Shown piece by piece: positions 49,374 to 50,987 of a stretch of 64,000 nt of DNA (positions are counted from its first letter, which is position 1; each line of letters opens with the position of its first letter). Origin of the DNA: Escherichia coli. GTDB taxonomy: Bacteria; Pseudomonadota; Gammaproteobacteria; Enterobacterales; Enterobacteriaceae. The position numbers were made by a program, and so were the translations under genes. The notes beneath the pieces were generated by a model, which ran no database searches, was not told the origin of the DNA, and saw nothing but the letters and a program-made list of their open reading frames with translations. The stretch lies in the NCBI RefSeq assembly GCF_051903065.1, contig NZ_CP178438.1. One strand, 5' to 3'.

Positions 49374-49928
49374 ATGCTTATTGGCTATGTACGTGTGTCA
49401 ACAAATGACCAGAACACAGATCTACAACGTAATGCGCTGAACTGTGCAGGATGCGAGCTGATTTTTGAAGACAAGATAAGCGGTACAAAGTCCGAAAGGC
49501 CGGGACTGAAAAAACTGCTCAGGACATTATCGGCAGGTGACACTCTGGTTGTCTGGAAGCTGGATCGGCTAGGGCGTAGTATGCGGCATCTGGTCATTCT
49601 GGTTGAGGAGTTGCGCGAACGTGGCGTTAATTTTCGCAGCCTGACGGATGCTATTGATACCAGCACACCGATGGGGCGTTTTTTCTTTCATGTGATGGGT
49701 GCCCTGGCTGAAATGGAACGAGAACTGATTGTTGAACGAACAAAAGCTGGACTGGAAGCTGCTCGCGCACAGGGACGAATTGGTGGACGTCGTCCCAAAC
49801 TTACACCAGAACAATGGGCGCAGGCCGGGCGATTAATTGCATCAGGCGTTCCTCGCCAGAAGGTGGCGATCATCTATGATGTTGGTATATCGACACTGTA
49901 TAAGAAGTTTCCGGTCGGAGATAAATGA
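49374..49928 (+). CDS. serine DNA invertase (Gin/Pin/Hin family)
   Basis: MLIGYVRVSTNDQNTDLQRNAL... with C-terminal HTH; adjacent to the invertible segment. Confidence 0.92.
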   Translation: MLIGYVRVSTNDQNTDLQRNALNCAGCELIFEDKISGTKSERPGLKKLLRTLSAGDTLVVWKLDRLGRSMRHLVILVEELRERGVNFRSLTDAIDTSTPMGRFFFHVMGALAEMERELIVERTKAGLEAARAQGRIGGRRPKLTPEQWAQAGRLIASGVPRQKVAIIYDVGISTLYKKFPVGDK

Positions 49929-49969
49929 AACCGTAGCACGTCGTATGCAAGATCGTGCTGCGGTTTATG
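49927..49969. repeat. hairpin-containing direct repeat, copy 1
   Basis: AAACCGTAGCACGTCGTATGCAAGATCGTGCTGCGG, imperfect copy of 50946-50987. Confidence 0.6.
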
Positions 49970-49985
49970 CTTATCACTTAAAGAC

Positions 49986-50759
49986 TCAAAAATTAGGTGA
50001 GTAACGGACCGGGGACATAGCTCCTTTTTTTCTTAATTCATCTGGTATTTTTTTTCCAAGATAAAGATTTGCTATTTCAGGTGGGGCTTCTCGGCCTTCA
50101 AAACCATAGCGAGAACTTTGTGTTGCCTCAAAGTCAGGATCCTCGTCCCAGTATTTCATCGTAGGGAAATTTTCACGTGTTGATTTGAGCCATTTATCAG
50201 CAATGAAAACCCCCCGAACGATTCCCCTTACAGTAGCAAGAATAACTTCTGCTTGGCTGGCGCGAGAGACATTAATGCGCCAGCTAAATCGAACCGCATC
50301 ATAAAGCTCTGAATCCTTTGCACTTCTGTTAACGGAAATCATTAATGCTTTATGATGAAATGTTATGGTTTCGGGTTGATATGTTGCTATCAACTCTTTG
50401 ACATGCGCGGCGCCGAATTCATTGCTGCCAGCACCATTCATGATATTCGTTAACCCAGGGTAGGCATCAATAAGTGCAGCTTCAACTTCGTACGCCGTCT
50501 TTTCATCAGTCATTCCGTGTCGATGGATGACATGGATAACTTCAAGTCCTGCTAACCTTATTTCTCTAATTTGCTTTAGCTTGTTGCTCAGTAACTCGTC
50601 ATCATCAGTCGCTGCCACTTCACCGCGCATATGGGCAAATACGCGGTTACCTTTGCCTTTCCCTACATAGAAGGTGCTTCCGTCCCTCGGATCAATCAAT
50701 CGGTATACATACCAGCCAAGGTGTTCAATTACTCCAGAAGGAAACTCAGTAATATCCAT
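49986..50759 (-). CDS. GIY-YIG nuclease-domain protein
   Basis: N-terminal GIY-YIG-like motif [29 protein letters not shown]; start taken at MDITEF. Confidence 0.6.
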
Positions 50760-50945
50760 TTTGCAATATCTATGAATTATTTGTGAGACGTATATTAATG
50801 AACATTGCAAGGGCTCACAACCAGTAGTGTTGAGAAAACTATCGGGTAAATGAGGCTAATCCTTTGAATTTACATAGTAAAAAAGATACTTTTCCTCATA
50901 GTGTGAGCTAATTTTATGTTTCGTTTGATGATCGGACCGGTCTCA

Positions 50946-50987
50946 AAAACCGCAGGCACGTTGTATGCAAGAACGTGCTGTGGCTGG
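50946..50987. repeat. hairpin-containing direct repeat, copy 2
   Basis: AAACCGCAGGCACGTTGTATGCAAGAACGTGCTGTGG with 7-bp stem GCACGTT/AACGTGC. Confidence 0.6.

Follow-up and report, generated by a model that had tools for sequence, protein, structure and literature searches.

A PD-T4-3/CMoRE restriction gene and its bounding hairpins in the accessory end of an Escherichia coli prophage

The restriction gene between two hairpins

We analysed a 64-kb stretch of Escherichia coli DNA (64,000 nucleotides of contig NZ_CP178438.1, called the window below; positions refer to it unless another sequence is named), in which a restriction gene matching PD-T4-3/CMoRE is bounded by two copies of a hairpin in the accessory end of a prophage. 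The list of open reading frames (ORFs) contained a minus-strand ORF of 257 amino acids (aa), flanked by a pinE-type serine DNA invertase gene and by the RT-Toprim gene of a retron of the Ec67 family, both on the plus strand (Table 1). An earlier note on this DNA had described such a gene between an invertase and a retron, within two direct repeats of about 40 bp that each bear a hairpin. The earlier coordinates were correct to 1 to 2 nt, and the ORF and the repeats are real and not chance features. pinE is the final gene of the rightward tail-fibre/invertible-segment block, and its TGA stop codon (49926-49928) shares its last base with the start of hairpin copy 1 (HP1), which occupies the 57-nt gap separating the convergent stop codons of pinE and PD-T4-3. 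Hairpin copy 2 (HP2) lies on the other side of the gene and is followed by two conserved segments, which we call the tail and the platform. A repeat search returned the pair as a 28-nt direct repeat with 89% identity, and the similarity reached about 40 nt if one 1-nt indel was allowed (AAACCGTAG-CACGTCGTATGCAAGATCGTGCTGCGG versus AAACCGCAGGCACGTTGTATGCAAGAACGTGCTGTGG). The degenerate 25-nt core of the repeat had exactly 2 matches in the 64-kb window with up to 3 mismatches and 0 in 100 shuffles. HP1 folded with -23.6 kcal/mol (z of -5.5) on the plus strand and -17.4 kcal/mol on the minus strand, and HP2 with -20.3 and -14.9 kcal/mol, respectively, and a weaker z of about -1.8. The GC content was 0.42 to 0.44 in the repeat-bounded unit (the cassette), compared to 0.55 in the tail genes, 0.49 to 0.50 in pinE and 0.33 to 0.38 in the retron.

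Judged by the matches of its product, the gene is the already known PD-T4-3/CMoRE. The PADLOC profile of PD-T4-3 (PDLC04031) matched with an E value of 2.4e-140, with aa 1-256 on profile positions 1-255 of 256. The protein of PDB entry 9U75 matched over aa 1-257 with an E value of 3.7e-172 and 253 of 257 residues identical (98%), and 9U7U was also a strong match. These full-length matches bear out the suggestion of the earlier note that the gene is defence cargo. Its GIY-YIG reading was likewise upheld by a LEM-3-like GIY-YIG domain of Pfam (PF22945) at aa 28-110 (E value of 3.6e-14) and by the tyrosines Y17, Y19 and Y31 of the GIYxY-YIG motif, which are retained in G15-W-Y17-V-Y19 and F30-Y31-V-G33. 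The C-terminal residues 110-257 aligned without gaps to 9U75 with 2 substitutions and match the modified-cytosine sensor of CMoRE in that structure. Over the whole protein, the window allele differs from 9U75 by four substitutions, namely T51 for A, E55 for D, Q169 for K and N199 for H. The window protein has D52-D53-D54-E55 where 9U75 has DDDD, and four acidic residues in a row are thus kept. We infer that this run is the acidic autoinhibitory loop of CMoRE, the residue numbers of which are absent from the text of PMC12923530. Two of the four substitutions lie in or beside it.

The strain that first yielded PD-T4-3 was ECOR68 (Vassallo et al. 2022, PMC9519451), and the name CMoRE was introduced in Nat Commun 2026, together with crystal structures 9U75, 9U8D, 9U7U and 9U7Z (PMC12923530). 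The enzymes of that study came from E. coli O157:H7 and APEC O1, 9U75 being the O157:H7 enzyme. As a type IV restriction endonuclease made of one protein, CMoRE degrades DNA with 5-hydroxymethylcytosine (5hmC) or glucosyl-5hmC (ghmC), requires two modified cytosines and cleaves a fixed distance away (PMC12923530). Besides the GIYxY-YIG motif (Y17, Y19, Y31), it has a C-terminal sensor domain with a new fold and an autoinhibitory acidic loop, and the wild-type enzyme is inactive on ordinary DNA unless this loop is mutated (PMC12923530). It protects against T2, T4 and T6 through direct defence and not through abortive infection, and native-promoter clones of PD-T4-3 homologues were active (PMC12923530). 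Modification-dependent cleavage by a homologue was found in independent work (PMC12366544), and a native gene was active in a clinical isolate, with deletion data from the native host (bioRxiv 10.1101/2024.12.20.629700). The window gene is like CMoRE of O157:H7 and APEC O1 in length, architecture, motif, acidic loop, single-gene organisation and prophage location. From its near-identity to the studied enzymes, the window allele is predicted to cut 5hmC/ghmC DNA and to restrict T-even phages. The enzyme would be constitutively present, its C-terminal domain would recognise 5-hydroxymethyl- or glucosyl-hydroxymethyl-cytosine, and its N-terminal GIYxY-YIG domain would then cleave the DNA. Incoming T-even genomes would be destroyed, and the cell would survive.

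The earlier note had also considered a homing-type nuclease. In that case, a free-standing GIY-YIG enzyme would propagate the cassette that encodes it through cleavage of cognate sites without the gene, and the repeats would be what is left of its target. A GIY-YIG domain is indeed present, and empty and filled alleles exist, as described below. However, the protein is 98% identical to a modification-dependent restriction enzyme that needs 5hmC or ghmC and is inactive on ordinary DNA (PMC12923530). Its C-terminal domain corresponds to a modification sensor, and Pfam showed LEM-3_GIY-YIG only, with no module of the NUMOD/IENR1 type. Furthermore, the two hairpins are 11% diverged, and their family is older than the cassette. 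The homing endonuclease was discarded on the CMoRE identity and the published substrate requirement, and we regard it as highly improbable. A comparable neighbour of an invertase gene is mcrA in the e14 prophage of E. coli K-12, which has a pinE-mcrA arrangement. McrA is an HNH enzyme unrelated to CMoRE.

Table 1. Coordinates of the features discussed in the window
Feature	Position	Strand	Basis or remark
PD-T4-3/CMoRE gene	49986..50759	-	PADLOC PDLC04031, PDB 9U75 and 9U7U, Pfam PF22945
pinE-type serine DNA invertase	49374..49928	+	ORF list; RefSeq name at a 100% identical locus, 'pinE site-specific DNA recombinase'
Hairpin copy 1 (HP1)	49928..49966	none	13-bp stem AAACCGTAGCACG / CGTGCTGCGGTTT, conserved loop
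Hairpin copy 2 (HP2)	50947..50983	none	Heads the next conserved unit (tail and platform)
28-nt direct repeat	49936..49963 and 50956..50983		Repeat search
PD-T4-3 upstream region	50760..50932	-	Conserved with the cassette (79 loci)
tRNA-Ser(CGA) anticodon-arm relic (att-like)	50933..50952	+	CGGACCGGTCTCaAAAACCG, 20 nt, 1 mismatch (in the anticodon)
Tail, about 60 nt	50984..51044	none	GGCTGGTGAACTT..ATAGTGCG..TTGAATGATTTC..GATTTTAC; 120 IMG/VR loci
Platform, about 100 nt	51045..51141	none	Also in lambda (24260-24352) and in a subset of prophages
Retron Ec67-type unit	51319..53306	+	NCBIfam NF038237, 742 bits; PADLOC RT-Toprim_I-C
Retron inverted repeats a1/a2	51319..51330 and 51440..51451		12 nt, 100% complementary
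Retron RT-Toprim gene	51471..53306	+	611 aa; outside the repeat-bounded unit
tRNA-Thr(CGT), thrW	12904..12979		Start of the left end of the prophage (12904-14157)
Tyrosine integrase	12994..14157	-	387 aa; directly after the tRNA
pinE invertase crossover sites	47392..47411 and 49293..49312		20-nt inverted repeat, core of the AAACCTTGGTTT type
IS1	53366..54063		Directly after the retron
betA	54383..56116		Adjoins IS1

Filled and empty sites of the cassette

The region 49338-51470 was compared by megablast with complete E. coli genomes, and the matches began or ended exactly at the repeats. Empty sites were found with a single hairpin. At locus L001 (strain 2196), pinE was followed by one hairpin and then directly by the homologue of window 50985-51130, and this hairpin aligned with both HP1 and HP2. 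At a second empty site (L005), one hairpin stood behind a tail-fibre-assembly remnant. The filled site of L002 lay in a lambdoid prophage at ssrA. A tail-fibre-assembly gene preceded the cassette there, and a Dcm-type methyltransferase and a restriction enzyme followed it.

We also collected 79 IMG/VR loci encoding the same protein, in which the interior of the cassette was 96.4 to 99.7% identical to that of the window. The left context was pinE in 57 of them, a tail-fibre-assembly gene (tfa) in 14 and another sequence in 8. On the right, the cassette ran into a complete 3' half of tRNA-Ser (25 loci), a restriction-modification (RM) block that began inside the HP2 loop (24 loci), or HP2 and the tail (24 loci). 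Every combination of left and right context occurred, and the sequence type of HP1 tracked the left-hand gene. The left joint lay where the right arm of HP1 ends, at CTGCGGTT|TATGCTTATC (TATGC). Some loci carried stacked units of PD-T4-3, RM genes and further cargo, each followed by a hairpin. The single-hairpin empty sites and the occurrence of one cassette in three types of left-hand and three types of right-hand context agree with the proposal of the earlier note that the cassette is an exchangeable unit.

The two hairpins differed from each other by 11% and an indel, whereas the cassettes differed among loci by 0.3 to 3.6%. HP1 and HP2 have thus diverged far more than the cassettes, so the repeat is not a duplication made by the insertion of this cassette, and a fresh target-site duplication was ruled out. 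Likewise, the repeats are not private to the cassette, but are diverged members of a near-universal prophage element that is also present in phage lambda.

Two further arrangements were observed at such sites. One IMG/VR contig (L010:1820-6460) carried two tandem units of pinE, hairpin, PD-T4-3 and tRNA-Ser 3' half, about 3 kb apart. At L147:12628-13712, as well as at L188 and L193, a different gene lay between two hairpins, encoding on the minus strand a 222-aa protein resembling S-adenosylmethionine-dependent methyltransferases, and a duplicated tail-fibre-assembly fragment lay beside it.

A hairpin family of prophages and phage lambda

Of 5426 complete E. coli genomes, 5407 contained the hairpin with its tail. 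The element occupied 15,340 places in all, and the number per genome had a median of 3 and never exceeded 9. A motif scan of IMG/VR, with the motif taken from the tail, gave 120 more loci. Hairpin and tail together (window 50947-51044) followed 59 or more different left contexts and, in 93 loci, continued to the right into 35 clusters of sequence. The examined copies were all in prophage contexts or phage genomes. In Qin of K-12, for example, the element sits at the far right of the prophage, and the distance to the interrupted ydfJ is about 185 nt.

The same counts bear on whether the repeats might be due to chance or be generic palindromes of the host, namely repetitive extragenic palindromes (REP) or bacterial interspersed mosaic elements (BIME). 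The element is very abundant in E. coli. The earlier note had named, as an outcome that would count against its reading, common REP-like host elements unrelated to cassette boundaries, and half of this holds, as the repeats are very common. However, they are not REP-like elements of the host, since they belong to prophages and are tied to module boundaries. They occur at a median of 3 and at most 9 places per genome, not at hundreds, their contexts are prophages and phages including lambda, and the shuffled windows contained no match. REP/BIME was therefore rejected, and we assign a negligible probability to this explanation.

Phage lambda (NC_001416, L086) has the same organisation. HP2 and about 160 nt beyond it (window 50950-51141) are 80% identical to lambda 24162-24352, HP2 itself being homologous to lambda 24160-24200 (approximate positions). 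The leftward lambda gene ea47 (22686-23918) lies between two hairpins of the family, at about 22573-22611 and about 24160. The first directly follows the tail-fibre-assembly gene, and the second, with tail and platform, precedes ea31/ea59. The b region of lambda (NC_001416 22557-26973) therefore reads tfa, hairpin, ea47, hairpin with platform, and ea31/ea59, in the same order and orientation as the window. In lambda, however, ea47 (410 aa, no PADLOC match) takes the place of PD-T4-3 and tfa that of pinE, there is no tRNA-Ser relic, and the next cargo is a Septu-like Ea59/Ea31 pair and not a retron. The GenBank records of lambda carry no annotation at either hairpin or at the position of tail and platform.

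The stem of the hairpin covaries. In 48 distinct aligned sequences, 85.8% of the cells were paired, and double changes occurred in 9 of 13 pairs, values that were reached in 0 of 500 shuffles. Controls with a slid alignment gave 22 to 38%. As the stem covaries beyond both kinds of control, the hairpin is selected as a structure. While the stem varied in this way, the loop (CGTATGCAAGAAC) and the tail of about 60 nt were conserved in sequence, although the invariance of the tail is partly built in, since the loci were collected with a tail motif. The tail was present wherever the hairpin opened an accessory region. The right end of the platform is the point at which related loci split into different cargo, with at least 10 continuations after about 51138-51158 among the PD-T4-3 loci.

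Several identities for the repeat were tried and rejected. A small minus-strand protein across hairpin and tail, suggested by a 49-aa ORF in the window, is absent in 35 of 83 unique loci, and the remaining loci have ORFs in two different frames with varied starts. A part of the retron msr/msd is excluded by the a1/a2 repeats, which lie beyond the platform. A crossover site of Hin, Gin or Pin is 26 bp long and consists of two adjacent inverted half-sites around a 2-bp core. The true Pin crossovers of the window (AAACC TT GGTTT, Table 1) differ from the hairpin, in which the AAACC/GGTTT ends are 27 nt apart, and the hairpin is thus not an invertase site. An integron attC site was rejected as well, because no IntI was found among the ORFs, the RYYYAAC/GTTRRRY cores are absent from the hairpin and the cassette is opposite to its neighbours. 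Integron cassettes are similar in that single-gene units are parted by imperfect-palindrome repeats. In contrast, the units described here have no IntI, but have their own upstream region, mixed orientations and relics of tRNA/tmRNA (transfer-messenger RNA) attachment (att) sites at the junctions.

The conservation of hairpin and tail also raises the question of whether they are a functional element in their own right, either a regulator acting as a small RNA or 3' untranslated region (3'-UTR), or a protein-bound recombination 'linker'. The stem covaries, loop and tail keep their sequence across the many left contexts, the element is in almost all E. coli genomes and in lambda and is not in Rfam, and both joints of the cassette lie exactly at hairpin arms. 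On the other side, the collection by tail motif accounts for part of the invariance, no associated protein was found, and frequent recombination among related prophages may have produced the conservation. Furthermore, the lambda copy sits in the dispensable b2 region, which counts against such a function. On balance, we consider this explanation rather unlikely. We are similarly doubtful that hairpin and tail (window 50947-51044; lambda about 24160-24260) represent an undescribed, near-universal structured non-coding prophage element with a function beyond termination. Such an element could be an RNA regulator or 3'-UTR module of accessory defence genes in prophages. It could also be a linker through which defence cargo is exchanged and stacked at the tail-fibre end of lambdoid prophages, and which possibly serves as a secondary att target for tRNA-Ser or ssrA integrases. 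No published description of it was found in the literature searched, but the classical lambda papers were outside the reach of that search and its novelty is thus unproven. The Rfam scans by E value gave no family above threshold for hairpin or tail. The 3' terminal hairpin of Rfam CssrB, a chromosomal small RNA of Shigella, aligned to HP1 (49906-49962) with 32 bits, below the gathering score of 76, and this sub-threshold match suggests that transcripts with this hairpin at their end have been detected in Shigella. Rfam IS009 matched inside tfa in lambda and Qin.

Proposed termination and recombination at the hairpin, and its cargo

The hairpin stands where the rightward tail-fibre/invertase operon meets leftward accessory genes, and for this reason HP1 is most likely the shared convergent terminator of pinE and PD-T4-3. 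HP2 would be the equivalent hairpin heading the next unit. In tail-fibre-assembly contexts, the minus strand reads as the hairpin followed by UUUUUCUUUUU, which is a good intrinsic terminator form, and the stable hairpin begins 19 nt beyond the PD-T4-3 stop codon. The CssrB model of Shigella, which has this hairpin at its 3' end, also favours termination. Several observations, however, weigh against termination as the role of the hairpin. A simple terminator scan called neither HP1 nor HP2. The U-tracts in the window are weak (UUUAUGCUU on the plus strand and UUUCAUUUA on the minus strand of HP1, UUUUUG on the minus strand of HP2); they are short in the pinE context, and the plus strand of HP2 has none. 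A plain terminator needs neither the conserved sequence of the loop nor that of the 60-nt tail. In addition, the asymmetry of G·U pairs showed no strand bias (-18.7 versus -18.2 kcal/mol, p = 0.41) and thus did not indicate a functional strand. The earlier note had offered recombination sites or terminators as readings of the repeats. Their position at module boundaries stands, and the covarying stems fit a selected hairpin such as a terminator, but no recombinase acting on the repeats was evident. For PD-T4-3 itself, a promoter of its own is presumably located in the conserved upstream region, where TTGTGA-17-TAATAT on the minus strand was picked by eye as a candidate. A consensus promoter scan of this region gave no site at threshold.

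Relics of att sites were found at HP2. The tRNA-Ser relic overlaps its left arm, and in 25 related loci the same position runs into a complete tRNA-Ser 3' half, attR-like, which is annotated as tRNA-Ser in E. coli genomes. The relic resembles what is left of an att site on the right-hand border of the PD-T4-3 module. In at least nine loci (L006, L009, L013, L020, L045, L109, L125, L127 and L194), the last 28 nt of ssrA, which encodes tmRNA, were fused in reverse to position 4 of the hairpin, as at L006:3980-4037. This fusion looks like the att junction of prophages that integrate at ssrA. One and the same RM block ended in intact ssrA at L002 and in the ssrA core, hairpin and platform at L009. 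A second attR type of tRNA-Ser was present at L139:877-1276, L165 and L190, with the hairpin and tail, about 240 nt, and then CGGTCTCGAAAACCGG and the tRNA-Ser 3' half; its arm differs from the one adjoining PD-T4-3.

These junctions raise the possibility of a site-specific origin, in which the left arm of the hairpin (GAAAACCG) is a secondary att site for the tyrosine integrases of tRNA-Ser and ssrA prophages, the ends of prophages were stacked there, and the direct repeat is a by-product. The tRNA-Ser relic and the complete 3' halves, the nine ssrA fusions, the two endings of the RM block and the integrase genes directly to the right of the tail, which belong to several families and occur in 49 of 93 loci, all favour it. 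The precise fusions to the left arm could reflect integrase-mediated joining at some junctions, and to that extent they weigh against ordinary recombination as the route. However, the common sequence is just 8 nt long, and no att-like relic is present at the left junction, which lies at the right arm of HP1. The hairpin lies before the att core in some prophages (L139) and after it in others and is thus no fixed part of an att site. It is found with at least 4 integrase families, and in lambda it is 3.4 kb from attP. The same junctions are also obtainable by microhomology-mediated deletion. We consider a site-specific origin of the HP2 junction unlikely. The junctions do suggest that att-proximal ends of different prophages have been joined at the hairpin, either by secondary-site integration or by microhomology deletion.

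Overall, we think it probable that the locus is a PD-T4-3/CMoRE 'moron', a self-contained accessory unit, which occupies the accessory end of a thrW prophage (a region equivalent to the b region of lambda), is bounded by prophage boundary hairpins and is moved by ordinary recombination. In lambdoid and related prophages, the hairpin family would mark the meeting of the rightward late operon with leftward accessory or integrase genes. HP1 would terminate both pinE and PD-T4-3, and HP2 would head the tail and platform and then the next cargo, here the retron. Homologous or short-homology recombination (RecA or phage enzymes of the Red/RecET type) at these conserved linkers would shift cargo units between prophages. 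Prophages that differ in other respects share the hairpin, the tail and the tail-fibre/invertase genes, and ordinary recombination at these sequences is therefore the likeliest way in which the cargo moves. No dedicated cassette recombinase was found. Relaxed homologous recombination between lambda and defective prophages has been described in the neighbouring stf/tfa region (PMC3945230).

The unit shares several properties with the morons of lambdoid phages (Juhala et al. 2000 / Hendrix; cited in PMC4104026 and bioRxiv 10.1101/2024.10.15.618418), namely that one accessory gene comes with an upstream region of its own and a hairpin resembling a terminator, that its GC content is below that of the structural genes, that it is present or absent between conserved phage genes, and that it is useful to the lysogen. 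In contrast to them, the PD-T4-3 unit is convergent at the end of the late operon and not inside an operon, and one hairpin family stands on both sides. The defence hotspots of P2-like phages and P4-like satellites (Rousset et al. 2022, PMC9122126; Vassallo et al. 2022) are similar in their fixed prophage position, conserved flanks and varied defence systems. They differ from the locus described here, where the backbone is lambdoid or has a Mu-like tail with pinE or tfa, and where the flank is about 100 nt of non-coding hairpin and tail and not genes.

The accessory 'b region', which separates the tail-fibre genes from the attachment site, begins at the hairpin and is a hotspot of defence cargo. 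Among the cluster representatives, the sequence after tail and platform was a minus-strand integrase, a bacterial att flank (ydfJ, dacD) or cargo. Besides the retron of the window, the cargo elsewhere included Septu PtuA/PtuB, Avs2, a PD-T4-6-like kinase, PDC-S06 and an OLD/AriA-like ATPase. The lambda proteins Ea59 and Ea31 (L086:3510-5974) matched the PADLOC candidate system PDC-M01A/B, and Ea59 also matched Septu PtuA with 611 bits, so that the lambda b region appears to carry a Septu-like defence pair. While the gene of the window is another copy of a well-characterised type IV restriction enzyme, the locus illustrates how defence genes travel, with one short hairpin marking the joint at which differing prophages carry and swap cargo such as PD-T4-3, RM systems, retrons, Septu and Avs2. 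The hairpin is a practical anchor for finding prophage-borne defence cargo. If hairpin and tail were to promote exchange actively, this would explain part of the rapid turnover of immunity genes in prophages.

The prophage that carries the locus is integrated at thrW, where the tRNA-Thr and integrase genes form its left end. It has Mu-like baseplate genes and an invertible tail-fibre segment, and the 20-nt inverted repeat that brackets the C-terminal segment of the tail fibre provides the crossover sites at which the pinE invertase switches the host range. On the right side, the prophage is cut by IS1, next to betA. The otherwise 100% identical sequence of NZ_CP027447 has an integrase fragment, yagU, ykgJ and the ecp genes after the retron instead, and this difference suggests that a deletion associated with IS1 took place in the genome from which the window comes.

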